Positions 17,031-49,108 of a stretch of DNA of 64,000 nt are shown piece by piece; the first letter of the stretch is position 1, and every line of letters starts with the position of its first letter. The stretch is from the NCBI GenBank assembly GCA_030295235.1, contig AP026145.1:248001-312000 (forward strand), given 5' to 3'. A model generated the notes under the pieces. That model worked only from the letters and a program-made list of their open reading frames with translations, ran no database searches and was not told the origin of the DNA. Source of the DNA: Fistulifera solaris (taxonomy: Eukaryota). Position numbers and translations under genes: made by a program.

Positions 17031-17123
17031 GTCCACTTGGTCTAGTGGTATGATTCCTCGTTCGGGATGGGATAGCCCTAACGCTAGTCGAGGAGGTCGC
17101 GAGTTCGATTCTCGCAGTGGACC
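17031..17123 (+). tRNA. trnP-CGG: tRNA-Pro(CGG) with 21-nt intron (17067-17087)
   Basis: Acceptor GTCCACT/AGTGGAC plus C73, A-box TGGTCTAGTGG, anticodon stem CCTCG/CGAGG with loop TT-CGG-G^T, T arm GCGAG-TTCGATT-CTCGC. Intron is at the canonical 37/38 position. Confidence 0.93.
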
Positions 17124-17150
17124 TTTCTTTTCTCTTTTGCTTTTGCAAAA
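17124..17150 (+). terminator. Pol III oligo-T terminator region of tRNA-Pro(CGG)
   Basis: TTTCTTTTCTCTTTTGCTTTTGCAAAA directly follows the tRNA. A near-identical trailer follows the tRNA at 41225. Confidence 0.7.
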
Positions 17151-18310
17151 TCTCGTGGTGGATCTTTCTTTTCCTTCCTTGTCACGATTTTTTCATAAAC
17201 TTCGTCTTAACGGTACCCATTATGATTTTTGCTCCTGTATGAAAACATGATATACGACATTGAAATCTGACACAACCCGGTATTCGACTTGCACCTTTTC
17301 ACGAAGGATTTTTGCCGCATAGCGCAAGCAAGCGCGGCCGACCAAGGATGCGGCCGACGCCCGCATTTGTTGGCCTGCTCAACACGAGTGCCCAAGAAGG
17401 AAGAAGGGATGGATCGTTCAAGCGCAATGCCCGCTCGCTAGCAAAAGGGTTCTAATGGAACTCCTTTTCCCTAATATCGTTGTGCTTTCCCATGAATCGG
17501 CTTTTGTGGATGCGCCGGGTACATTTGCGCATCCGAAATTCGCGACGTCTCCAGGAATGCTGCGTGTCGCGTGCCCGCTTCAATGAACACTGTAAGATTG
17601 CAGGTCTGATAATACAGCATTTCGGCCTTTGAGCTCAAAGTTCACAAACAGCTCCATTTTGGGTGCGAAGAACGACGGAGCACGGCAGTTGAGGGAGCCA
17701 GCTAAAATGACTTCAGCTTCTATCAGACAAGTGGCTTCGTCTTCAACCACGGATAATTGTAAAGAGTCTGATCGGCGTTTGTGAACAAAAATGAGCCAAG
17801 CTCAGCGGGGTTACAGTAAGTTCCAAATACTGTATCGGTAACCGCTTCCGACGAGTGATCTTTACAATATCTTTACAATACAAAGCAAGGAGCTGCATGG
17901 TGCATAGAGGTGACAATCCTTTTGCTCATTTCGGGACACTTCGGTGAACAGTAAATTGACTTTAAATGTCGGTAGCGAGCTTGAATCTTTTTTCGACCCG
18001 ATTTCGCCGTGATTCAAAATGAATAATTAATGGCGCTGGTTGGGCCTCTTTCAGAAGAACAAAGCATGGGCAAACGATGTAATCATGTAATCGCTTAACG
18101 CATGTTCGATCATAATCATCGCCTCGGGTTACGTCGCATTCATAGACATTCCTTCGGCAAAACCAATCGACAACTTACTTGGAGATGCCACTGCACATGT
18201 CGAGGACGGACACATCTTGAATAGCGCAAATGACGGTCTTCGCGAAGTACGAGAGGACTTGGAGCTAGAAAGACGAACTGCATTCTAGTTTCGTTAGCTT
18301 CTACGCGGTT

Positions 18311-21300
18311 TTACTCGGACTTTTTATGGTATTTAGGTGGTACGACATCAACATGATAATTCATACCCTTGTTCGAGGCATGTTCCATGCGCCAGTCGAT
18401 CGCCATCTGCAATGCACCTTGTTCCCCAAAAGTCTTGGTCGAGAACTGGTCCGATATCCCTCGAGAACCGGTGGGGCCATCAGGAGTATACTCAGAAGCC
18501 GTTGCCACCCAATAAGACTCTACATTGAGATCTTTGCTCTTTCGGTAAACGCCCAACACTGACCCATCTTCGCGAGGCTCCTTCTTTTTGTGTTGGGTTT
18601 GGTTGTTGTTTTGAGAAATAACATCTCGTGGAAGGAGATTTCCGGGGCGATTGTTCTCTCTATTCTGATCGGCGTGGTCTACGGTCAAAGTGTCGTCCAA
18701 CTCCTCGCCAATATGCGCCTCCAAAACAAAACGGCAGAAGTTTCGAGTGTGGCTTTTTCTCGTCATCCAAAAAGGTGATACGAACGTGATTTTGCCGTCG
18801 ATGGTACTTATGCGCTTCTGAATAGGAATGTACTTTCCTCGGCGAGTGTCGTAGACATGGGTGCCGTCTTCACTGACAAGAAGAAACTTGAACAAAGGGT
18901 GCTCCCACCAACTGTGTTTTTTGCTGCTGAAGTAGGAGAGGATAATTTCCAGAGTGGACAATGTGAAGAGTTTTCTGTGGATAAGCCCAGCCGGACAGCA
19001 ATGGATGAGTTAGTTCATATCGCCACCTTCAATCAACAACAAAGCGAGATACTGGTTCTTACCGGACGTTTCTATTCAGATTTTCCAATCGGCTATTGTC
19101 GGCAATAGATATCCAAGCTAAGACCACCACTCGATTGTCTTTGACGTTGCCGAATATATGATGGCCGACAATGCCCTCCGGTCGCCTGCCTCTGAAGGTG
19201 ATCAAGACGAGGTGGTGAACGTGAGAAATTCTTCTTTGTTTTATTGCAGAGATTGCTGTATAGGGTCACTCTCAGGTATCCATCGCTAGTTGTTTCGGTG
19301 CTCAAAACCTGAAACTTTCTGGTCAGAACATGATCTTTTTGACGAGAAGGATCTGTGTCGAGTCCTATGACTTCTTCGAATTTGTTATCGAATTTCAACC
19401 CTGAAATTTCTCGCCAACCCAAGTCACAGCTCACGATGAAGCCATTTTCATGGCAGAAGTAAATAGTTGGACAGCGGTAGCGAATCGCTTGATGACCTCC
19501 CTTTTCTCGTGCAATCACCATGGTGATTCGTCCATGCTCATCAGCGGTCATCAGTTTGCTTGCCAGGTTCCAGGTCATCCGGCCTGTTCGGGTAACCGGC
19601 GAAGCCACTTTGGTGCCCCACTAGAAACTCCTCACAATCCATGTTGCACAGAAAGGCATCATCGTTTTCGGTCTTGCCTTATCTTTAGACTTTCGCTTCC
19701 CCTTGCCTTTTCCTTTGGCTTTGCCATTAGATTTCACGCTTGCCTTTGCGTTTGCCTTTTGCGCTCAGCATCTCTGTCGCGACCGTTGAGCGAAAACATT
19801 GGAGGGAATCATTCGTAACTGGTCTGTCAGTAGCCAATAATTGATGATTCCTATGGGGATGGGCTCGCCCGATACAGGTTTGAAAGCCTCTGCTTCCGCC
19901 GGTGTTGCAATTTCAACCTTGAAATCAATCTTCACGGACCCCGAGTAAGGCTCAATGCGTTGGCGTCTGAGGCGTAGATTGTTAAAACAGCAAAACTATG
20001 TAAGTGCACACGCTCTGCAATCGCTCATTATTTAACCAATCAACTTACTCCTTTTGTTGATCGAGCCAAGTCTTGAGCTCAGCTACATCAGCGTGGACTG
20101 TCTGGGAGTCGTAAATTTTGCATTTGTTCAATCTTAAGGTAAGTTTTGCTTCGGCATATCGAAGGGATTCGCTTGGTTCAATGCTCGCACCTTTCACCTC
20201 GGATGACTGCCTCTTCAAATTGGCTTCAGATGCAACGGAGTCGTCATCTTTAGAAGGAACCTCTGGTTCAAAGGGCTTGGCTTTGGTAGTAAACAATTCG
20301 ACTTGAGCAAATGATTCAACAGAAGGGCCTTTGGTGGTTAGAACTTTAGTTTCAGTAGGTGTGGACTTTGGACTGTTCTCGTTGTCTTCAAGAAGCGATT
20401 TGCCATTTTTGCGTTTGGCCATATCGGCCTTCAGATTCTGAAGACCACGCTGCGTCTTCAAAGGGTCCTTGACGAATTCGCGAATTGCTCCGAGTTCGAC
20501 GTTGGACAACGGATGACTGGTCTGATTGTGACACAGTTTCCTTAGAAACAGAAGTGGAATCGGCGGGGCTAGAGTTGGACTTTTTAGTCGTCGCTTTGAC
20601 TGCAGGAGCATCGTTGGAAGCGAAGGTAGAGGCGGAGGGCTTCGCTTTGGACTGTTGAGTCGTTGCTTTGGCTGCAGGAGCATTGTTGGAAGCGAAGATA
20701 GAAGCGACGGGTTTCGCTTTGGACTTTTGAGTCGTCGTCACTTTGACTGCAGGAGGATCGTTGGAAGCGAAAGTAGAGGCGGCGGGTTTCGCATTGGACT
20801 GTTGAGTCGTCGCTTTGGCTGCAGGAGCATCGTTGGAAGCGAAGATAGAAGCGACGGATTTCGCTTTGGACTTTTGAGTCGTCATCACTTTGACTGCAGG
20901 AGGATCGTTGGAAGCGAAGGTAGAAGCGGCGGATTTCGCTTTAGACTTTTGAGTCATCGCTTTGGCTGCAGGAGCATCGACGGAAGCGAAAGTAGAGGCC
21001 ACGGATTTCGCTTTGGACTTTTGAGTCGTCGTCACTTTGACTGCAGGAGGATCGTTGGAAAGCGAAGGTAGAAGCGTGATTTCGCTTTAGACTTTTGAGT
21101 CGTCGCTTTGGCTGCAGGAGCATCGACGGAAGCGAAAGTAGAGGCGACGGATTTCGCTTTGGACTTTTGAGTCGTCGTCACTTTGACTGCAGGAGGATCG
21201 TTGGAAGCGAAGGTAGAAGCTGACGGATTTCGCTTTGGACTTTTGAGTCGTCGCTTTGGCTGCAGGAGCATCGATGGAAGCGAAAGTAGAGGCGGCGGGT

Positions 21301-21443
21301 TTCGCTTTGGACTTTTGAGTCGTCGCTTTGGCTGCAGGAGCATCGTTGGAAGCGAAGATAGAGGCGGGTTTGGATTCGCCACCCGAGTCGCGGTATTCGT
21401 TGGAAACAGCTTTCCCGTCCGAGTTAGCGGGAGAAGCGTTCAT
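18311..21443 (-). CDS. Spliced gene: repetitive N-terminus + two HNH endonuclease domains + AP2-like domain (copy 1)
   Basis: Exon 1 (21443-20049) is followed by intron 19967-20048 (GTAAG..CAG), then SGSVKIDFKVEIATPAEA. HNH1 is DGYLRVTLY...HVHHLVLITFRGRRPEGIVGHHIFGNVKDNR..LAW; HNH2 is CRFVLEAHIGEEL...TVDHADQNRENNRPGNL...QNNN; the AP2-like part is GVYRK...YWVAT...FSTKTFGEQGALQMAIDWR. Several frameshifts. Confidence 0.8.
20575..21370 (-). repeat. Coding minisatellite, 72-75 bp (24-25 aa) unit, about 11 copies, in exon 1 of HNH gene copy 1
   Basis: Repeated TTQKSKAKSVASTFASNDAPAAKA / ...SNDPPAVKV units. Confidence 0.9.
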
Positions 21444-22956
21444 GACAGCGAGGAGAGAAAGTTGCGAAACGAGAAAGCGAGTTATGTTTCACAGCTAGTT
21501 GTCTGGAATGATATCAATCGGGTGAGAAGTCGAACATCCAAGGAATGATTTCTCAGCGGGTTCAAAGATGACGGACGTTCGGCTCGCAGTCTCGTCAAAG
21601 CTCAAACAGAAGTTACTTTGATGGAAATAAACATGATAAACAAGCAATCTTACCAGAATATAATGATCTTGATTATTGTTTGCAATAGGACGACACTCGT
21701 TCTTGTTGATCTAAACGAATTTTATGAGCGGAAGACGTCGAGAAAAGCTTGAAAAACGTTTCGGTTTCTAGTGACCTGCAGTAGAAATTCTACGTGGTTT
21801 TCGATTTTCCAACCATAAACCAGTTTGTCTTGGCGAGCCCGGCGCGCTGAGATGCATTGATGAAACCGTCGACGCGTCGGTTTGAGGTAGAGCGCTTTTC
21901 GCAGTATTGGCACTCGCGTCTGACCGAAACTCTTTCCCTTGATGGTGGGAGTTTTTGCCACTGCGCCGCCATCATCCATCGTGCACCTGGTTATTGGTAA
22001 TTGATAGCATTATATTGACAGCAATGGCTGATAAGCCGATACCAAAGTAACAAGCGATAAAATGTAAGAGTTTTCTGGAATCGTCGAGCGTCGTGTCGAG
22101 CCAGTATCATCATACCCCCTGTTCAAGCATAGTGGTGGGCGCCGTTTAATGCGAGCTGATTTTTTTGTGTGTTGTGCCGTCCTACGTTTCGTGCATAGCA
22201 ATGCTGTTTCAGAAATAGCCGAACAGTGGTATTTCCACCTGACTGAGTGTTACGGTCTCACAGCGCTACTTGCACACATTGAGCTGGAAAGATGACGGCG
22301 TCGATTTTTCTTTTGACTTGTCTCGTCCGACGGCGTCGGCCTGCTGCCGAGCCACGACAACAACACAAGGAGCGAAGTTAATACAAAGTAGTTGGCGGTT
22401 AGAGAATGAACAAATCTGCATATAAAAGACGACATGATACCCTTTATATTAGCCTCTTGAGCGGCTCCATTTGACTGAAACAGCGTTTATACAAGCTGCA
22501 TTGTTCCTTGACCCAGGGTTTTTCGCTAATCTGAGATTTCCGCCACTTTAAGGGCTTAAACTCAAGAACTAGGACTCTTTTAATGCCAAGTATATCGGCG
22601 AAGCTCTCCTGGATATAGCCTTCGGTTGGTAACGAGAAAATGATAGGCTCATCTTGGTAGAGAATGGATTTTGTAGCTGTTGACGACGAAAAGAGGGAGA
22701 GAATTGCCCCTCCCCAAACATGCTTTGCCGCCAAAAACCACTTGCCAACTACACGTTTATGGTGAATGCTTCGCTTTTCTTGCTATCCTTTCATGACTTT
22801 GATTGTTATGAAATAGACAAAACATCTCTCTTTCGCAGCTTGCGATCTGTTGAAATCAGGGCTTAATTGATTACCGCCAATCCGCCGTTACAATCAAATT
22901 CTCGAATAAAGACCTTCAGTTGAAGTTGCCGTGATTTGGAAGAAAATTCGTGTGCC

Positions 22957-35380: not shown

Positions 35381-36875
35381 TACAGACATTCTGTTTGATT
35401 GGTCCTTAAATTCTGGACCGGGTGTTTTCTTCTCGCAGAGGTTCTGTGCTGGTTCGAGAAAAAATATACACGGTGTAATGGATAATACCAGATTAGGTGA
35501 TGCTGTATTACTTCGAAAAATGAGACGCTGGTTTCGACAAACAGCTTTTGTGTGATTTCCAGATTATCTGGAAAAAGCATTCCGTCGTACAGAAATTCTG
35601 TTTCTTTGGTCCTTAAATTCTGGACCAGGTGTTTTCTTCTCGCAGAGGTTCTGTGCTGGTTCGAGAAAATATATACACGGTGTAATGGATAATACCAGAT
35701 TAGGTGATGCTGTATTACTTCGAAAAATGGGACGCTGGTTTCGACAAGCAGCTTTTGTGGGATTTCCAGATTATCTGGAAAAAGCATTCCGTCGTACAGA
35801 AATTCTGTTTCTTTGGTCCTTAAATTCTGGACCGAGTGTTTTCTTCTCGCAGAGGTTCTGTGCTGGTTCGAGAAAAAATATACACGGTGTAATGGATAAT
35901 ACCAGATTAGGTGATGCTGTATTACTTCGAAAAATGAGACGCTGGTTTCGACAAACAGCTTTTGTGTGATTTCCAGATTATCTGGAAAAAGCATTCCGTC
36001 GTACAGAAATTCTGTTTCTTTGGTCCTTAAATTCTGGACCAGGTGTTTTCTTCTCGCAGAGGTTCTGTGCTGGTTCGAGAAAATATATACACGGTGTAAT
36101 GGATAATACCAGATTAGGTGATGCTATATTACTTCGAAAAATGGGACGCTGGTTTCGACAAGCAGCTTTTGTGGGATTTCCAGATTATCTGGAAAAGCAT
36201 TCCGTCGTACAGAAATTCTGTTTCTTTGGTCCTTAATTTCTGGACCGAGTGTTTTCTTCTCGCAGAGGCTCTGTGCTGGTTCCAGAAACTCTGGATAGGG
36301 TGTAATGGATCATACCAGATTGGGTGACGCTCTATTACTTCCAAAAATGAGACGATGGTTTCGACAAATAGCAAAAAGCTTTTGTGTGATTTCCAGATTA
36401 TCTGGAAACAACGACCCCGTCCTACAGAAATTCTGTTTGAATGGTCCAGAAATTCTGGACCGGGTGTTTTCTTCTCGCAGAGGCTCTGTGCTGGTTCCAG
36501 ATATTCTATACAAGGTGTAATGGATCATACCAGATTGTGTGACGCTCTATTACTTCCAAAAATGAGACGATGGTTTCGACAAACAGCATTTGTGTGATTT
36601 CCCGATTATCTGGAAACAGCGATCCCGCCATACAGAAATTCTGTTTGAATGGTCCAGAAATTCTGGACCAGGTGTTTTCTTCTCGCAGAGGCTATGTGCT
36701 GGTTCCAGAAACTCTGAATAGGGTGTAATCAGGTGTAATGGATCATACCTGGTACTGGTACGGATTGTGGGATGCTGTACGCTGTACCTGGTACAACGTC
36801 TTCGAAAAAATGAGACGGTGGTTTCGACAAACAGCTTTTGTGTGATTTCCAGATTATCTGGAAGCAGCGATCCCA
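35381..36875. repeat. Tandem satellite, about 207-bp unit, 7 copies, palindrome-rich
   Basis: Units start at 35381, 35588, 35795, 36002, 36208, 36423 and 36631 (TACAGAAATTCTGT anchor; TACAGACATTCTGT in unit 1). Confidence 0.95.
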
Positions 36876-40208: not shown

Positions 40209-41086
40209 TTCCCAATGGTTGTTTGCGGCTTGCGGCTTCCTGATGTGAATTTTATAATGTTTTGCTATTGGATATTAATGTCGTGTGGCATTCGTGCAAA
40301 CTGGTTAACACTTCATTTGCTCGAAGAATTAGCTGTGGTTGGCAGGCGATGCTAATGCTAAGTCATTATTAATTATCAGGTAATCAATGTCGTGTAACTT
40401 GTGAAGAAGAAGAAAAATGAGCTCTGCAGATTCTCTAGAGAGATGATAGAGATACGCTCGTAACGTGAGTTAGCTTTGACGTCATAGCGGCACTGCATTG
40501 GTACTTCTCATTTGTCATCTATTGGTTGATCATGTTTGAACTATAGGCTTCTAATACCGGGTCAAGGTCAATCGGCACTCGGCTGTAAGCGCGCGTCCTT
40601 AGTAGCAGTACTGTACCATGTCCTGGACATGTTGCGTCCAGTGCTTGATGAAATTTTGACAAACTAAAAACGCGGCGCAATATTAGATAAAATAATGTAG
40701 CATGTAATCTCATAGAATTTTGAATTTGACAGGTAAGTTGAAGCACGGCAATGTCATGTTTCTAAGGTACGCATGGCGCCGTTTGTGATCCGCTCTGACA
40801 ATTGCGTCCGTTGCTTACGCATTATTGAAACAATTTAGAGCGGAATCTCTGCTTACAAAGCAAGCAAGCTGCATGACATTACCAGGTAAATTTGGCGACG
40901 AATCTGAACAAACAGAGCCCTGAATTCATTAACAAAGTTCATTGCTCGCTTAGTACTCGTCACTCGTCATTGGTAGGAGAAACATAGTTTCTCAAATCTC
41001 AAGCCCAAATATAAAAATGAAAAGCGACAAAGACTATAAAAACAAAAAGAGAAGATAGATAGCATTAGGCAGACGATGGCGTCAAA

Positions 41087-41122
41087 GTCGGCATGGTCTA
41101 GAGGCATGATACTCGCTTTGGG
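41087..41122 (+). pseudogene. Orphan 5' half of a tRNA-Pro(TGG)
   Basis: GTCGGCA-TG-GTCTAGAGGCATGAT-A-CTCGC-TT-TGG-G, ending at position 37. No matching GCGAG or T arm follows. Confidence 0.8.
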
Positions 41123-41224
41123 ACTCAACCCCCAACCAATGAAAGTGGCAAAGACTGACTCAACTAACTTGGCAATTCTAGGTTGCAATTCAATAACCCT
41201 AGCTACTGTTGCACGTGTGATGGA

Positions 41225-41313
41225 GTCGGCATGGTCTAGTGGTATGATCCCTGCTTTGGGGCTCGGGAATGAGCGGTTGCAGGGGGTCCCGAGTTCAAAC
41301 CTCGGTGTCGACC
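41225..41313 (+). tRNA. trnP-TGG: tRNA-Pro(TGG) with 17-nt intron (41261-41277)
   Basis: Acceptor GTCGGCA/TGTCGAC plus C73, anticodon stem CCTGC/GCAGG with loop TT-TGG-G^T, T arm CCGAG-TTCAAAC-CTCGG, followed by an oligo-T trailer. Confidence 0.93.
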
Positions 41314-41590
41314 TTCTTTTGTCTTTTGCTTTTGCAAAAGGTTGTCCTCGGGCGTTTTTCCATGCGTTGGATGTTGGATCCAAAAAATGGCAAGGTTGCA
41401 ATCATACGTTTGGCTGTCACCCGTCTCCATAATTTTTGCCTATGTGTTCAGTACCGTTTCTGAGATAAGGACACTGAGGCTACTAAAACTGCAATACCAA
41501 TATTTCATCGTCTACTTATTATTTGAGATTAAGCACATTACTGTATGCATTAATGTTGTGCGGAGCTGTTCTTCGTTCTTCGCGCAAGTG
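41292..41590 (+). repeat. Left diverged direct repeat (tRNA 3' end + trailer)
   Basis: Shares TGTCGACCTTCTTTT, GTTGGATCCAAAAAATGGC, GTCACCCGTCT, TTTCTGA..AGGACAC and GGAGCTGTTCTTCG with 46794-47075. Confidence 0.85.
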
Positions 41591-42339
41591 CTTGCTTTCT
41601 TGCTTCTTGCTTGCTCCTAGGCTCGCATAAGGTTAGGGTTACTGGTAGCGCCGTTTCCATTTTTCACGCTTTTGACGCACGCAACAACACAAACCACAAC
41701 CAGCCATTCCATGCGTTTGCAACCATTCGAGTTCATAAAAAATAGTTCGTAGTTTTGTTGTCGACTGAGATGAGAAAACGAGACAACCCTTTCGCCGTCG
41801 GTCTTTCGGCCGTGATCAGGCAATTTAACAAAAATTGGACAACAGATCGAGGAATTTTGGAAGGAATTCTCCTTCCATCGAATGCCATTAAGTCGAAACT
41901 GTGCCTTGCCGTTCATTTGCGGTGACGAATGGCGATGTGAACAGAAAGACCCGGGTGTTTTTGAGATGAAAAGCTCTAAAAATCCGTCGTTGTTTAGTGA
42001 AAACCATTCTGGCAAAGTGATCTTGGCGCCCGTCTTCATGATTTCTCCGAAAGACCTGCGATGAACTTCCGTTTGGAATTCGTTTTGGAATTGGGAGCCA
42101 CACTCCGACGACACAATCGCGACGTTTTTACGACAATAGCTGAACGGTGTTCAAGTACCCTTCAATTCTTCTTACCAGGTACCTGGTAAACGAAAAGCAC
42201 GCAACATCGCTTTTCTTTTCAAGATACGAACAGCTCCAATTAAACTTGAACGGGTATTCAATTGACAACCGAATCGTGATCCTACTAATTGATATGATTT
42301 TTCTCAATTAAGTTTTTTTTGACGAGCGGCGATTTCACA

Positions 42340-42690
42340 ATAGATGTTGAATGAGAGACATTTGCCACTTGTTGGGACGTTCGATGAAGATTGAGTCGAT
42401 TTTAGATGTCGGTATTGGGTCTGCCTCTTTTTCCATTGTCGTCACTCAACGATGGCAAAAGCTGCTGCGATTGCTTAACATCTATTCGATCACGAGAAAT
42501 TTGTTCGGTCGACATCCGACAGCATGATTTGTAATCTTGAAAGAGACGAACTACATGACTAGAGCTTCCTTAGATACTACAGCGATTGTGCCAGTCGATC
42601 GCCATCTGCAAATGCACTCTGTTATCCATAGTCCGAAATTCCTCGCGTATCGGCAGGCCCACCAGCTGTATCCTCATTTTGTTTACGGAT
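42340..42690 (-). pseudogene. Relic third copy of the HNH-AP2 gene 3' end and its downstream region
   Basis: CCAGTCGATCGCCATCTGCAA matches 18392 and GTCCGAAATTCCTCG matches 43450. Translation TAGGPADTRGISD parallels TPDGPTGSRGISD, and 42360-42420 parallels 42970-43030. Confidence 0.65.
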
Positions 42691-43311
42691 AGGTCTACGC
42701 AGCTCACAAAATTGATAAATTTTTAGGTGACCGTGGAAGAACTGTTTGAAGAGGATCGAAGACAAGATTTGGGCCACATTCGACATCTCTATACAATGCG
42801 ACGATTTTTCATGAACGAAAAGCAAGCAACACTGTGCTGCGCTACAAGTTACGAATTGCTCCGTTCAACCACTACCCGAACAAACGTTTGAAACAGATCA
42901 CGCATTGCATTGTCATTTGCCGTTGGTTCTCAATCATGTACTTGACGAGCGATCTTCACAAGCGATATCTAATTTGCCGATTGGGGACGATCTGCTGAAG
43001 ACTGAGTCGAATCTAGCCGTTGGTAGCCTACCGTTTGCTTGTCCAAACCAAATTTCGTCACGATCGACTACGACAAGCTTTTTGACGCTTATACAACAGA
43101 CCAATCGGAGCTCTTTTCAATTCACTTGGTCGATATGATATTTCCTGCATGTTCGATAAAAATCGCCATGGCGTGCGTCGCATCCACTTGTTTTCGACAA
43201 GATCATTCAAAGATGGACGGTCGTGGAACCAACGTTCGAAACCAGAATACGAGACTCAGATCTAGGAAGAAACGAACTGCATTACTAGTTTCGTTAGCTT
43301 CTCACGCAAGT

Positions 43312-46085
43312 CTACTCGGTCTTCTTTGGGTATGTAGGAGGAACGACATCAACGTGATAGTTCATACCCTTGTTCGAGGAATGTAGCATACGCCAATCGT
43401 TCGCCATCTGCAATGCACCTTTCTCCCCGTATGTCTTGGTCGAGAACTTGTCCGAAATTCCTCGAAGCGGTAGGGCCAACAGGAGTATACTCGCTGGCTG
43501 TTGCCTTCCAATAAGAATCTACGCTAAGATCCTTATTATCGCGGAAGACGTAAGAGTGAACCATCTTCGCGCCGGTCCCTTCTGACGGTGTTGGGTTTGG
43601 TTGTTGTTTTGAAAGATTACACCTCGGTCAAGGAGGTTTCCGACGGCATTGTCCTCTCGATTTTGATTGGCGTGGTCGACGGTCAGCTTCTCGCTCAATT
43701 CCTTGCCAATATGCGCTTCCAAGACAAAGCGGCAGAAGTTTCGGGTTCGAGTCACTTTCTGAAGTCCGTGAAAGTGATGCGGAACGTGATCTTGCCGTCG
43801 ATGGTACTGATGCGCTTCTGGATAGGAATGTATCTTTTTCGGCCTAGGTGGTAGACATGGGTGCCGTCTCCACTGACAAGAATATCCTTGAAGAAAGGGT
43901 GCTCCCACCAGTCGTGCTCTCCGCTCCTCCAATAGGTTGAAATGATCTCTAAAGTGGACAGAGTCCAAAATTTTCTCGCGAGCAAGAAAAAGTGGCGACA
44001 AGGGTGAGTGTGCGATCGTCGCCTCATTCTTGTCTAACACGGTGAAACTTACTTGCGGTCCCTGAAAAGATTTGCCAGCATACTATTTTCAGCAAGCAAG
44101 ATCCAAGCTAAGTTCACCAAGCGATTGTCTTGTACGTCGCTGTTTCCGTGATGACTGACACATCCCTCTGGTCGTCTGCCTCTGAAGGTGATCAGCACAA
44201 GGTGGTGGACGTGAAATTTCTTTTTGGTATGGTTGCAGAGGTCGCTGTAAAGATCCACTCTCAGGTACCCGTCGGAATCCATTTGAGTTTTCAACACTCT
44301 ATAGAATCTGGTCAGAATATGGCGACCCCCGCCCTAGTTTGAGGTCTCTTCCGACGACTTCCTCATACTTTGAATTAAAATTTCCCATGACCTTCGGGCT
44401 GTATTCTCGCCAACTTTGTCTGCGACCGATGATGAAGCCATTCTCGTGGCAAAAGTAAACCAACGGGTAAAAGGGGAAAGTCTTTAGTGTCCCATCCTTC
44501 ATCTGAATTCTTGCAACCACCGCACAAAGTTGCCCATTTTCATCGTAGGACGTTTCTTCGCTTTCCAGCCTCTATCCCCTGCTCCTCCGGGTATGGGAAA
44601 TAGCCCGTGTAGGGGCCAATGCGAAAGTCCTCATAATCCATGTCAAGAAGAAATGGATCGTCCTCGTCTTTGGTCTTGACTCCCCCTTCGGTTTGGTGGT
44701 TACTTTGACCTTCGGGTTCAGCATCTTTGGCGCTCAGCATCTCGGTTCGCCCATTGAGGTCAAAGACATTGTACGGAATCGCTCGCAACTGATCTGTCAA
44801 TAGCCAATCATTGATGATCCCAATTGGAATTGGCTTGTTGGGCTTCTTGGGGTCGTTGTTTATATAGTCTTTTATGTTGAATGCCTAGGCTTCCGCTGGT
44901 GTCGCGATCTCAACTTTGAAATCAAACCTCACGGATCCCGAAGAAGGTTCAGCGCGTCTGTGTTATAAGAGCAGAAAAACTTGTGAGTACCGTACGTCCA
45001 GTGAACGCTGGCAAAGCAGAAGATAATGTGACCTACCTGCCCCTTCGCCTTCGGCGATCGATCAACATCGCAAGCTCCGCTACGTTACGAGGACCTTCTG
45101 GGAGTCGTTGAGTTTCCATATCTTGAATCTTTTGGCGCATTCTCTCGACAGCGTTTTCCAGCAATTCACACCGTGGAACTCTTGCCCCGCCATCAACTGG
45201 AGGTTGCTGCGCGGCGTCAGCTTCGGGAACAACGGAGTCATCGTCGGCAATGGAGTCGTCATCGTTGACACCGAGAACTTCAATGTCGTTGGTGGATGCG
45301 TTGGGATCATCCGCTTGCATCGGGGCGAAGTTCGACTTCCACGGAATCGTCGTCGACTGTAATGACTTGCACTGTAGAGGCAATGGGAGCGTTGGTGTCG
45401 AGAAGCGACTGGCCACGTTCACGCTTTGCCATGTCGTCCTTCAACTTCGCGAAGGGCACGCGTTAGCGTCTTGTTTGGTTTCGAACGAGGGCGGCGGGTT
45501 TGGACGTGGTGATCTGCGATCCAGCAAGCAGAGCATCTTCAACATCGGTATCGGTGTCCGACTCAAAGACGTCACGGAGAAAAGTCTTTGCCCAAGCCAG
45601 AAACACAATGGCAGGCGTCAGCGGCTGCTACAGCGGGTTTGGGGGTGCGGGTAGCATGTCGTGTCTTCTTAGAGCCTGAGCGAGCGACAGCGGCGGGTTT
45701 GGGGGTACGGGTCTTCCACTTAGGTCCAGCAAGCAGAGCACCTTCGACATCAGTATCGCTGTCGGACTCAAGGAGGAAGAGAGGATCTTGTTTGCCCGAA
45801 CCGGAAACCCAAGGAACGGCGGCGGGTTTGGAATCGAAATCGTCGTCCTCGCCGTCATCGTAAAGAGTAGCCGCGAGGGCCGCAAATCGGTTCGAGACAG
45901 CGACAGGAGCGGGCTTCTTGTCTTGAGACGGATCAACCTTCTTGTCTTCGACAGATCGGTCTTGTTCCGCTTCGTCGAAGCCTCGTTCAGTATCCGAAGG
46001 GTTCTTTGAGACGCGACGTTTCTTGTTGTTGACGATGGTATAGCCAGAGTCGGTGGTAGACGAAGTCGGTGGAAGAAGAGTCCAT
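43312..46085 (-). CDS. Spliced gene: low-complexity N-terminus + two HNH domains + AP2-like domain (copy 2, possibly inactivated)
   Basis: The ATG at 46085 has a 5' region homologous to that of copy 1, and intron 44958-45036 has the same position and phase. HNH1 is DGYLRVDLY...VHHLVLITFRGRRPEGCVSHHGNSDVQDNRLVNLAW; HNH2 is TVDHANQNREDNAVGNL; the end is VVPPTYPKKTE*. In-frame TAG at 44885-44887, plus frameshifts. Confidence 0.78.
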
Positions 46086-46793
46086 GGTAGTTTCGAGAGA
46101 AAGATTGCGAGATTGCAAAGAGAAAGTGAAAGTGATGTTTCACCAAAAATTGTGTTTTTGTGTGCTTGGTGCGGTGTTTCATTTTACAGAGCTTTGCTTT
46201 TGTTGATCATAGCCGTCAGCACAAACGGCGGGACCAGACTTGTCTCGTGAATGAAGATCATTGCCCTTTGTCTATGCCCCTCAATAAAGTATCGAGATAG
46301 ATTCAATGACAATTCCATTGGATCTTTGTAGAAATAGGACTTCTTTGAGTGCTGCTGCGAGAAGAATTGTACTCCCATCTTTTTTGGTGTTCATCGAAGT
46401 TATTTTTGAAGCATCGAATTTAAGTTTAGCACAAGACTCTGTTCTTATCGAAGGACAAGTAATGCTTCGATGGAATTATACTAAAAGAACCTCGAATGGT
46501 TGAAGCTGCATGAAGCTTACATTTATCATTAGTTGTTGCTCTTTTCACGAACGGCTTTCAGATAGTACGTGGGGAAATTGTTTGAAAAGAATGAATAATT
46601 TGCTTTTGTGTGAAGCACTAGCATACGACTCGTGACCAGCTTTTTGTTCTATAGAGTAACGTGTACACTGGCCGTCGTCCTTAACCTCAACCAAGACCTA
46701 CAAGTAACTGTGGAAAGGAACAACGAGTATACGAGTACCGGATCAAATATCTGCGAAACGTAAACTCAGATCGCAGTGATATTCAACTAAGCT

Positions 46794-47075
46794 AGTTCGA
46801 TTCCCGCTGTCGACCTTCTTTTCTCTTTTGAAGTCTTCGGGCGTCTTCCCAAGCGTTGGATCCAAAAAATGGCGAATGGCGAAGTTGCGTCCATCCGTTT
46901 GACCGTCACCCGTCTAAATGAATTTAGTCTAAGTATTCAGTACAAGTACCATTTCTGAAAAGAGGACACACATTGTACTAAACTTGCCATACCAAATTTC
47001 ACTACATACTTGTTATACTATATGAAACAATGTAGTGTAGGGATTAATCTAGTATGGAGCTGTTCTTCGCGCAGG
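46794..47075 (+). repeat. Right diverged direct repeat beginning with an orphan tRNA-Pro 3' end (46795-46815)
   Basis: GTTCGATTCCCGC-TGTCGAC-C-TTCTTTTCTCTTTTG gives the T loop, T stem 3' strand, acceptor 3' strand and terminator. No A-box or anticodon arm upstream. Confidence 0.85.
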
Positions 47076-47205
47076 CCCTTTCTTCTTCGAACTTCGCGCG
47101 TATTTCCGCTTTTTTTTGCTTTTGATGATCTCGATCGTCGTCGACGAGCAAAACGAACGAAAGAGCTATAAAGCAAAGCACCACCAAGCATCTTGCTTCT
47201 CCGTC

Positions 47206-49108
47206 ATGAAGAATCATCTTTACGTATACATTTTGCTCCAATTCAAAGCGATCTTATGCGTGGGACTTTTTGTGCCGCTTTCGTCTCATCCTCCCCCTTG
47301 TAAGGACCGTCTTCGAAGATTCAGAGCAAACGGGTCTGTCTCCTATCCAACAAATTCACCAATAAAGAAATCGTTTTTGTTTTCGTCTGCTCCCGACGAT
47401 ACCGTAACTGATACAGACTCACTTCAACACTCGCGAAGGGAGAGGCTCCGGCAAAAGATATCGCGGGGATTGCAATTTGTCAAGCAAAAGACGACCGCGG
47501 CAAAAAATGAGGCGCGGAAAAAATTGAAATCCTATAAAAACGACTATCCTTTTCTGACCGGAAAAATAAACAAAGCATGGACGCCTGTTCTTGTTGCTTT
47601 GATACTAGGCTATCGATTCGGAGCACGCACGCGCAAAATTGTAACCGACACCTCTGGAACAGTCATTCGACGACGGCCTTTCGTTTCGCAAATTGCCTTG
47701 ACAATCTTCGTTGTTCGAGAAATGTGGCGTGCCATTCCACCTTGGTTGAAGAAGCAACTCCCAATCGTTCGTAAACAAAGCGCGGTACCCGGATTGGAAT
47801 CCGTTGTCGACGAGAGCGATCTTTCCTCAATCCCCGTCCTCATGGGTCGACTTCAAACACTTTTAAAGGCCAGTACCGCCAAATTATCGTCACCGTTATC
47901 CGCGGGTGAAATTCAAACGTCGTTTCTGACCCTACTTCGACTCAGTGCACAAATGAAAGTCCAAGATCCTTACGAACGCGACATGGTCTACGAGGAATCT
48001 GGAACGCTACTGACTGCCGACGAACGGGCACAATTCACCGACATTGAGGAGACCTTTGAGTTAGCAGATATTGCGTACAACGAACTTCCATTCGATCAAG
48101 AATTGCGAGATGTGCTGGGAGCTCGTAATTATAGTTTAGTGAGACACGAGCCTCTATCATTGCCGGGAAGTGCAGCTCATTTTGTGGCGTTGTCGAACAA
48201 GCAAAAGGTGATTGTAATAGGGGTCAAGGGCACTTCCAACTTTGAAGATTTCTTGACAGATGCGTGTGGTAATGTAGTGAATCACACGTTGTCCGCTCCG
48301 TTCATCAATGGCGGCCCCGTTGAAATACGCTGTCACGAAGGAGTCTTCGTGGCTGCCTCGCGTCTGTTAAATGATCTCGAACGTCTCGTCGAAGCATTAT
48401 TCATCCCGACCGGCTACAAGATAATGGTGACGGGTCACAGTCTAGGGGCTGGTGTTGCTTCGTTACTGGCAATTTTGCTACGGTCGCGGTTTCCTGAGCT
48501 CCGAGCAGAGGGTCGACTGAAGGTGGTTGCCATTGCACCGCCTCCTATATTGGATCTCGACGCTTCACTTGCATGTCAGCCATTCACGACAACGATTGTC
48601 AACAACGCTGACATCATTCCACGGACTTCTCTATCGAACCTGATTATTACTATGGAGTTTCTGAAGCTAGTCAACAATAAGCTCGATAAGTCCGGTCTCA
48701 AACCAGCCGGGTTGAACGCCACGGCGGCGTTTTTAAAAAAGTTTTACGGAAGGCATAAACGGTACAATGATAATGTCGCCTCAAGAAATCAAAAATGGAT
48801 GGAAAACGTCGATAGAATTGGTGGGTCTTGATGATCCGGATCATCTGTTTGTTCCTGGGCGTGTCCTTCACATGTATGATTTATGGTCCAAGCCGGGCTA
48901 TGGGCTCACCCACAACAGCTCTCTCCCCGAACCGGCGGATGGACTTCTCCTTGATTCTATCATCCATCCGGCGGAACGCGTTTTAGTAACAGATGGCACA
49001 TCACCTGTGCTAAGAACAATTGAAATGGACGGACGAATGCTTTCCGACCACATGGCTCCGGCCTACCGAAGTAGTATTCGCACGCTGTTTGGTGCAAAGT
49101 CTGACTGA
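47206..49108 (+). CDS. Class 3 lipase (DAG-lipase-like), N-terminal signal peptide
   Basis: VIGVKGTSNFEDFLTD, CHEGVF, VTGHSLGAG, VNNADIIPR, and C-terminal MLSDHM after a frameshift near 48750. Confidence 0.88.

Follow-up and report, generated by a model that had tools for sequence, protein, structure and literature searches.

In a window of 64,000 nucleotides (nt) from the diatom Fistulifera solaris (assembly GCA_030295235.1, contig AP026145.1, positions 248,001 to 312,000; all coordinates below count from the first letter of this window), two fragments of a gene for tRNA-Pro(UGG) are separated by inserted DNA, which carries an intact tRNA-Pro gene with the same anticodon and a gene for a protein with HNH_3 and AP2-like domains (HNH-AP2 gene). 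We consider it probable that the resident tRNA-Pro gene was broken and that a paralogous unit consisting of a tRNA-Pro gene and an HNH-AP2 endonuclease gene was copied into the gap; we do not commit ourselves to a cause of the break. The features of the locus and of a related unit located upstream are compiled in Table 1.

Fragments of a resident tRNA-Pro gene border the insert

The exon part of the orphan 5' half comprises 36 nt and terminates at the canonical intron site. It is identical to the intact gene in 31 of the 36 exon positions (34 of 40, if the first four intron bases are counted). A degenerate pattern of 24 nt matched the orphan 5' half without mismatch and also matched the intact gene; no match was expected on the basis of 100 shuffles. 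The sequence TTCGATT-CCCGC-TGTCGAC-C (46796-46815), which makes up most of the orphan 3' end, occurs exactly once in the window, again with 0 occurrences expected by chance (100 shuffles). The tRNA-Pro(CGG) gene terminates in the only sequence that comes near it (17104-17123, three mismatches). The complete orphan 3' end is identical to the intact gene in 17 of 22 positions and to the CGG gene in 19 of 22, and it is followed by a T-rich terminator. An earlier interpretation of the locus, made from the letters alone (the sequence-only reading), had proposed these two pieces, and both are present and non-random. The differences that it had noted in the anticodon stem and in the T arm are likewise real: the resident-type anticodon stem strand is CTCGC, whereas the insert-borne tRNA has the stem CCTGC/GCAGG and the arm CCGAG-TTCAAAC-CTCGG. 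That reading had also tied the two pieces to each other by the complementarity of their acceptor strands. The complementarity exists, but it does not discriminate, because the intact gene carries identical acceptor strands.

The disruption of the gene is supported; the two pieces do not, however, abut or add up to a whole gene. From both are absent 14-16 nt of exon 2, namely the 3' strand of the anticodon stem, the variable loop and the 5' strand of the T stem, as well as most of the intron; tRNA positions 38 to about 53 are represented in neither piece. By means of ARAGORN with the intron option, no tRNA was called in 46700-46900, and the orphan 5' piece plus the 53 nt downstream of it folded no better than shuffled sequences (z +1.21). 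A functional split or permuted tRNA gene was therefore ruled out. As a tRNA cannot be rebuilt without positions 38-53, the orphan pieces have to be regarded as relics.

A contig of 151 nt from a sediment metagenome (X3, record 11) contains an orphan-type 5' half (41089-41110, one mismatch), which is followed by 70 letters and then by 41317-41334, the first 18 nt of the flank that succeeds the intact gene, before it diverges. This junction of an orphan-type 5' half with such a flank shows that the orphan type is also represented by intact genes in other places. When metagenomes were scanned with the tRNA 5' pattern, five loci (L001-L005) were found; each is a tRNA-Pro(TGG) gene without an intron, belongs to an AT-rich organism that is unrelated, and shows neither homology in the flank nor an HNH-AP2 match.

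The insert supplies the intact tRNA-Pro(UGG) gene

The insert extends from 41127 to 46793 (left junction 41126/41127, right junction 46793/46794), so that the 5.7-kb insertion postulated between the tRNA pieces measures 5,667 nt. Within it, ARAGORN with the intron option identified in 41225-41313 a tRNA-Pro(tgg) of 72 nt plus an intron of 17 nt at the canonical 37/38 site. In the predicted fold of the precursor, the acceptor, the T arm, and the anticodon stem are retained, and a TTTT run is located at most 8 nt downstream of the gene. The insert-borne copy thereby possesses the tested marks of a tRNA-Pro(UGG) gene, which are a cloverleaf, the UGG anticodon, an intron at 37/38, and a terminating T-run. 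The DNA of the insert supplies the sole intact tRNA-Pro(UGG) gene at the locus.

The elements of the insert follow each other in the order leader, tRNA-Pro(UGG), flank F1, spacer with the remnant of an HNH-AP2 gene, full-length HNH-AP2 gene on the minus strand (copy B), and unique tail. F1 is paralogous to F2, the resident flank that leads from the broken tRNA gene to a class-3 lipase gene (Lipase_3, 1.2e-18). Over about 280 nt, 198 of 259 aligned positions are identical (approximately 76%; 41292-41575 versus 46794-47069, E 1e-36). The remnant gave three collinear matches with 43260-43302, 43392-43418, and 43450-43492 (E 7e-4 to 1e-4), and a further one with 18388-18494 (E 1e-7). The sequence-only reading had recognized the tRNA pieces and the insertion, but its anatomy of the locus was incomplete; the duplicated flank of about 280 nt, the HNH-AP2 gene in the insert, and the paralogous unit at 17031-21443 have to be added.

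Assembly support and base quality

The locus was compared with two sets of contigs, designated X1 and X2, the latter originating from a metagenome of another study. One X1 contig of 7,479 nt (depth 16.7) spans all of 40600-47400 with 6 substitutions and 38 gaps, and X2 contigs with a likeness of 95-99% bridge both junctions. Since X1 may stem from the organism of the window itself, only X2 constitutes independent support. That the tRNA halves might be products of the assembly, a possibility raised by the sequence-only reading itself, is not borne out by these contigs.

Compared to the X1 and X2 contigs, the window contains many single extra letters between 40600 and 47400 (12 listed sites and 47 more). 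X1 and X2 agree at 10 of the 12 listed sites, for example at 43303, 43572, 43977, 44332, and 44548. Because of these extra letters, frameshifts in the window are not a reliable indication of gene decay. Such errors probably affect the window as a whole, and apparent frameshifts or short open reading frames (ORFs) anywhere in it may be errors of assembly.

Between close relatives, the spacer of the insert varies in structure. In the X2 relative, 164 nt of the spacer (41831-41996) are replaced by 60 other letters, and an X2 contig steps back by 50 nt at 42101-42150, which corresponds to a tandem duplication of 50 nt.

An uninterrupted second locus

A second X1 contig (record 2; 1,267 nt) has a depth of 16.1, as compared to 16.7 for the contig of the filled locus. 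It aligns to 41085-41126 (42 nt, two mismatches) and then leaves the sequence of the window. After 127 unaligned letters it returns at 46882-46943 (8 differences in 62 positions), 47086-47113, and 47200-47400 (31 differences in 201 positions), and it continues into a copy of the lipase gene at about 85% identity. Record 6 of X2 has the same layout with 112 letters in between. Judged by these alignments, record 2 looks like an uninterrupted homeologous site, at which a single tRNA-Pro gene precedes an F-type flank and the lipase gene and which offers no space for 5.7 kb. With approximately 85% identity, the second locus resembles a homeologue and not an allele. The claim that a resident tRNA-Pro gene was disrupted is supported in outline by these two records. 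As the window keeps 88 nt (46794-46881) of the interval that corresponds to the 127 letters in record 2, about 39 nt are missing.

A related tRNA-Pro/HNH-AP2 unit 24 kb upstream

The region 41225-41369 is 70.6% identical to 17031-17181 over 153 positions. Further downstream, the insert segments 42352-42432, 43147-43186, and 43253-45444 are collinear with 17911-17992, 18100-18142, and 18256-20434, in continuation of this first pair. In the upstream unit (unit A), the tRNA-Pro(CGG) gene is followed by 56 nt of flank, by patches of the spacer, and by an HNH-AP2 gene (copy A) that is a paralogue of copy B. By this collinearity, the insert is a copy of a unit composed of a tRNA-Pro gene and an HNH-AP2 endonuclease gene, whose second copy is located 24 kb upstream beside tRNA-Pro(CGG). 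The two HNH-AP2 genes agree in 1269 of 1714 aligned nt and have their two introns at the same positions; copy B is collinear with the protein P0112 as well. Since the introns are conserved in both copies, copying would have occurred at the DNA level. Introns of the GT..AG type are found in the protein genes of the window and, together with the introns of the tRNA genes, mark the sequence as eukaryotic.

Copy A corresponds to a public gene model of Fistulifera solaris with 764 amino acids (aa) (P0112, FisN_7Hu104), which maps along 21443-18314. The ORF 18311-19009 is 95% identical to P0001 and 59% identical to P0002, another protein of Fistulifera solaris; the 90%-identity cluster of P0001 includes P0112. 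Among named proteins, those of this pennate diatom are the nearest. Within its first HNH domain, copy A shows an apparent frame break, and the respective stretch is skipped by P0112.

Exon 1 of copy A contains a tandem repeat (20575-21367) with a period of 72 or 147 nt and 10.8 or 5.4 copies, respectively. It encodes a repeat rich in Ala, Lys, Ser, and Thr, which is also present in P0112. A shorter and diverged version is found in copy B at 45482-45831. An F-like piece (46886-46919) together with a spacer-like piece (42985-43012) and, separately, an HNH-AP2-like piece (44428-44461) are found in records 3 and 4 of X1. Further copies or fragments of the unit are therefore present in the genome outside the window.

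Table 1. Features of the interrupted tRNA-Pro locus and of the upstream unit A. Positions refer to the window.
Feature	Position	Strand	Remarks
tRNA-Pro(CGG) gene, intron-bearing; first element of unit A	17031-17123	+	Homology to the insert begins at nt 1 of the tRNA
HNH-AP2 gene, copy A	18311-21443	-	Nearest relative of copy B in the window; matches P0112
Orphan 5' half of resident tRNA-Pro(UGG)	41087-41126	+	Exon 1 (41087-41122, anticodon stem strand CTCGC) and first 4 intron bases
Insert leader upstream of the tRNA gene	41127-41224		98 nt; matches only itself in the window; no counterpart upstream of the CGG gene
Intact insert-borne tRNA-Pro(UGG) gene	41225-41313	+	Exon 1 41225-41260, intron 41261-41277, exon 2 41278-41313; T-rich terminator
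Flank F1, downstream of the intact tRNA gene	41314-41600	+	Paralogous to F2
Condensed remnant of the 3' end of a further HNH-AP2 copy (3' untranslated region (UTR) and AP2 part)	42534-42676	-	Same orientation as the main copy
HNH-AP2 gene, copy B	about 43312-46085	-	Two conserved spliceosomal introns, two HNH_3 domains, AP2-like C-terminus; start codon approximate
5' flank of copy B, last part of the insert	46086-46793		About 700 nt unique; only a weak 5' UTR match (46117-46143 to 21468-21492, E 0.13)
Orphan 3' end of resident tRNA-Pro	46794-46815	+	2 nt of T stem, T loop TTCGATT, CCCGC, acceptor TGTCGAC, discriminator C
Resident flank F2, broken tRNA gene to class-3 lipase gene	46816-47087	+	Common to the uninterrupted second locus

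The HNH-AP2 protein

The two HNH_3 domains of copy B are located at about 44082-44213 and 43633-43731. One of them was detected with an E-value of 3.2e-8, above the Pfam cut-off, and the other with 9.1e-5, just below it. In the last exon of copy A, HNH_3 was found with 4.5e-7, and AP2 weakly with 0.0017, which does not reach the cut-off. In PHROGs, the HNH-AP2 products match phage HNH endonucleases (best value 6.9e-17), and the closest Atlas clusters consist of AP2/HNH proteins from viruses. Both the family and the translation of copy B retain the H...N...N motif columns.

An AlphaFold model was generated for P0001, which is homologous to the C-terminal half of the copy A product; based on an alignment of 32 sequences, it reached a pLDDT of 84.8. 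The only match in the PDB with an E-value below 0.001 was the homing endonuclease I-HmuI (1u3e; E 9.7e-5, probability 1.00). The corresponding TM-scores of 0.38 and 0.42 are low, which is not surprising for a protein that is elongated and composed of several domains. By its sequence matches and modelled fold, the insert encodes a predicted nuclease of a homing-endonuclease family. More specifically, the HNH-AP2 protein belongs to the HNH_3/AP2, I-HmuI-like endonucleases, among which it is unusual in having a nuclear gene with introns and two HNH domains.

The family is small, with 109 representative clusters at E≤1e-3 and five at E≤1e-30. A sequence search of the PDB gave no match for the HNH-AP2 protein, and none of its relatives was among the 251 pattern matches in viral contigs. 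A protein word search found no longer relatives, and a profile word search yielded four proteins only.

Among the 82 six-frame ORFs of at least 45 aa in 41100-46830, whose frames are subject to the 1-nt errors, none matched an integrase, a transposase, or a reverse transcriptase. Two ORFs had Pfam matches, in both cases to HNH_3. Copy B contains an in-frame TAG at 44885-44887, at which position copy A has a GAG. As none of the six substitutions of the spanning X1 contig falls there, the stop codon can be taken as real. The interpretation of copy B as a pseudogene from frameshifts alone was rejected: both X1 and X2 lack one letter at the listed sites, several frameshifts of copy B fall on such extra letters, and the frameshifts of the window are for the most part errors of assembly, so that only the TAG stands.

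Intron-bearing tRNA genes and further features

The tRNA genes that ARAGORN reports for the window are two in number and both specify tRNA-Pro (CGG at 17031-17123 and UGG at 41225-41313). Their introns measure about 21 nt and 17 nt, respectively. With default settings, both genes are misread: 41225-41313 is reported with the four-base anticodon 'tggg', and the other gene as a fold of 93 nt. Rfam at the gathering score gave no match in the window, and thus reported neither of the two intron-bearing genes. Automated tRNA annotation of the Fistulifera solaris genome may therefore undercount such genes. An unrelated tandem array with a unit of 207 nt (6.4 copies, 92% matches) occupies 35381-36711.

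Proposed history and alternative explanations

In the history that we regard as probable, an intron-containing resident tRNA-Pro(UGG) gene would originally have been located directly upstream of F2 and the class-3 lipase gene. A double-strand break at some point from intron base 4 to the T loop would have cost this gene about 39 nt, and the gap would have been filled with the 5,667 nt now found at 41127-46793, which may have been copied or captured from a paralogous unit of tRNA-Pro, flank, and HNH-AP2 gene. The junctions look non-homologous or microhomologous, and repair would have proceeded by end joining or by microhomology-primed copying and not by clean gene conversion. The insert-borne tRNA-Pro(UGG), which is presumably expressed, would now replace the broken gene.

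It is very unlikely that a segment bearing a tRNA-Pro gene came to lie inside a tRNA-Pro gene at random; either guidance by homology or a sequence-specific break is therefore to be assumed. As F1 and F2 are paralogous, donor and recipient would have shared about 360 nt of tRNA and flank, and this homology may have guided the choice of the donor. One-step homologous recombination was rejected on paper, both as a single crossover with a circular molecule and as an invasion by the strand of one or the other broken end in the homologous part of the tRNA. Such simple routes predict hybrid tRNAs, and not an orphan 5' half followed by a foreign leader of 98 nt, which argues for end joining or microhomology-primed copying as the way of repair.

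Several observations weigh against this history. In X1 record 2, the tRNA is preceded by 363 nt that give no alignment with 40600-41084 at ≥85%; the left side is therefore not proven to be orthologous, nor the orphan 5' half to be resident and not derived from the donor. The 5' half of X2 record 6 aligned to the intact-type copy (41225-41260) and not to the orphan type. The unoccupied site that the sequence-only reading had predicted is present in outline, with an orphan-type half, the F flank, and the lipase gene on one contig in X1 and without the 5.7 kb, but its upstream flank is unaligned and its 5' half in X2 is of the other type. Moreover, record 2 and its tRNA are known from alignments to the window and not from the letters of the contig. 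None of 20 inverted pairs forms convincing terminal inverted repeats at 41127 and 46793, and there is no convincing target-site duplication at these positions. Apart from the locus itself, no X1 contig matches long stretches of the insert at ≥85%, and no recent donor was thus found, although contigs of this kind can show presence and not absence. Finally, the duplication of F1 and F2 and the remnant at 42534-42676 indicate more than one rearrangement, so that a history with a single event is a simplification.

A homing-like process, already considered in the sequence-only reading, would supply a specific cause for the break. In this case, the HNH-AP2 protein, acting as a nuclease or nickase, would have cut the resident-type tRNA-Pro gene at the lost positions 38-53, and the nuclease gene would have been copied together with its linked, diverged, and uncut tRNA gene. 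This scenario is in agreement with the type of protein that the insert is predicted to encode, with its two HNH_3 domains, AP2 part, PHROGs matches, and modelled similarity to I-HmuI. Furthermore, each HNH-AP2 copy lies 1.1-1.9 kb downstream of a tRNA gene; these are the only tRNA genes of the window, and both are tRNA-Pro. The two homeologous sites also appear to differ in occupancy. The placement of a tRNA-Pro cassette within a tRNA-Pro gene requires a targeted or homology-guided process, and phages offer a precedent in SegB, a free-standing nuclease gene tied to tRNA genes (PMC2330249, PMC13096335). The junctions, however, are unlike those of homing: sequence was lost, fragments of the target were left behind, and the flanks show no co-conversion; neither the leftmost 98 nt of the insert nor about 650 nt at its other end are homologous to the target. 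Copy B contains the confirmed TAG and copy A an apparent frame break in its first HNH domain, and the two conserved spliceosomal introns and the long low-complexity N-terminus are those of long-resident host genes. In addition, the two adjacent copies may represent one duplicated unit, which would reduce the association with tRNA genes to a single case (n=1), the family is small, and the cleavage specificity ascribed to the protein is purely hypothetical. We therefore regard a homing-like origin as possible, yet unlikely. More doubtful is its generalization, according to which a diatom nuclear family of free-standing, intron-bearing genes for I-HmuI-like HNH-AP2 endonucleases would target tRNA-Pro genes and travel with an uncut, diverged tRNA-Pro, so that 41087-46815 would be the fossil of an invasion sealed by end joining and a counterpart of SegB.

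It is improbable that no single insertion took place and that tandem tRNA-Pro copies arose locally and decayed separately, with the HNH-AP2 gene as an ordinary neighbour. That three pieces derived from tRNA-Pro genes lie within 6 kb, together with the flank in duplicate, would fit such a course, as would the further local duplication evident from the remnant at 42534-42676 and from the 50-nt duplication and the replaced stretch in X2. In the second locus of X1 and X2, however, a single tRNA precedes the F-like flank by 112-127 letters and leaves no space for 5.7 kb, and the collinearity with 17031-20434, which reaches from nt 1 of the tRNA into the HNH-AP2 gene, fits the import of a unit.

A mis-joining of the halves or of the insert is highly improbable: the many extra letters, including the 38 gaps relative to the spanning X1 contig, betray imperfect base quality, but this contig has only 6 substitutions over 40600-47400, and both junctions are bridged in X2. 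Hardly credible, too, is an integrase-mediated island, as suggested by the sequence-only reading, or a tRNA-targeting transposon. The tRNA 3' end is indeed directly repeated on both sides of the inserted DNA (17 of 22 positions), but the repeat lacks an identical core and goes on for about 280 nt into flank that has diverged. With the insert came a complete tRNA, preceded by 98 nt belonging to it, and not a 3' part. The resident 5' half was orphaned 98 nt upstream of the intact gene and not reused, terminal inverted repeats were not found, and 0 of the 82 ORFs match an integrase, transposase, or reverse transcriptase.

If the link to the nuclease were true, the locus would be a rare instance of DNA moving in the manner of homing endonuclease genes within the nuclear genome of a eukaryote, with an essential tRNA gene as target and an element that brings its own replacement; the protein would be a natural sequence-specific nuclease that is open to testing. 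Without this link, the locus would document a cleanly dated turnover of a tRNA gene, in which the resident copy was destroyed and a paralogue imported. In addition, the locus allows the two sets of homeologous chromosomes in this allopolyploid-like diatom to be told apart.

Comparison with known systems

Bacterial genomic islands and prophages use a tRNA gene as landing site, leave part of its 3' end duplicated at one border, and preserve an intact tRNA, features that recur here. The locus described here differs in that no integrase is found among the 82 ORFs, a complete, diverged tRNA with its own leader is present in place of a regenerated resident gene, a 5' half is orphaned, and about 39 nt are lost.

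Among eukaryotes, the retrotransposons Ty3, TRE5, and DGLT-A of yeast and Dictyostelium target tRNA genes (PMC6101501). Common to them and to the insert is the tie of mobile DNA to tRNA genes in a compact eukaryotic genome. These elements, however, insert beside tRNA genes and encode a reverse transcriptase or integrase, whereas the insert lies inside the gene and neither enzyme was found. The conserved introns in both HNH-AP2 copies point to copying at the DNA level. Split or permuted tRNA genes, for example those described for Cyanidioschyzon merolae (PMC3728597), likewise consist of separated pieces with a break next to the anticodon loop; here, in contrast, positions 38-53 are missing. In the literature that was searched, which comprises few of the subscription journals, no report on HNH-AP2 genes beside nuclear tRNA genes of diatoms was found.

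SegB of the phages T4 and T6 is encoded by a free-standing homing endonuclease gene in a cluster of tRNA genes (PMC2330249, PMC13096335). SegB homologues are enriched at distances of at most 1 kb from tRNA genes, and SegB moves or amplifies together with tRNA genes (PMC13096335). The physical linkage of a free-standing nuclease gene to tRNA genes is the feature shared with the units in the window. SegB is, however, a GIY-YIG and not an HNH enzyme and acts during phage co-infection with homologous repair, whereas the setting described here is the nucleus of a eukaryote, with non-homologous junctions and with a cleavage of the tRNA gene that is hypothetical.

The closest relatives with respect to the protein are the homing endonucleases of the I-HmuI type, which combine HNH_3 with AP2 and occur in phages and other viruses. 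The same link between HNH_3 plus AP2 and I-HmuI is drawn for a Symbiodinium element in PMC12220804, a study that found no tRNA genes in the vicinity of the sites at which polinton-like viruses had integrated. The HNH-AP2 genes of the window differ from this type in being nuclear, in having two spliceosomal introns, a tandem pair of HNH_3 domains, and a long repeat-rich N-terminus, and in lying outside any intron or virus; they resemble it in domain content, in the PHROGs families matched, and in the predicted fold.

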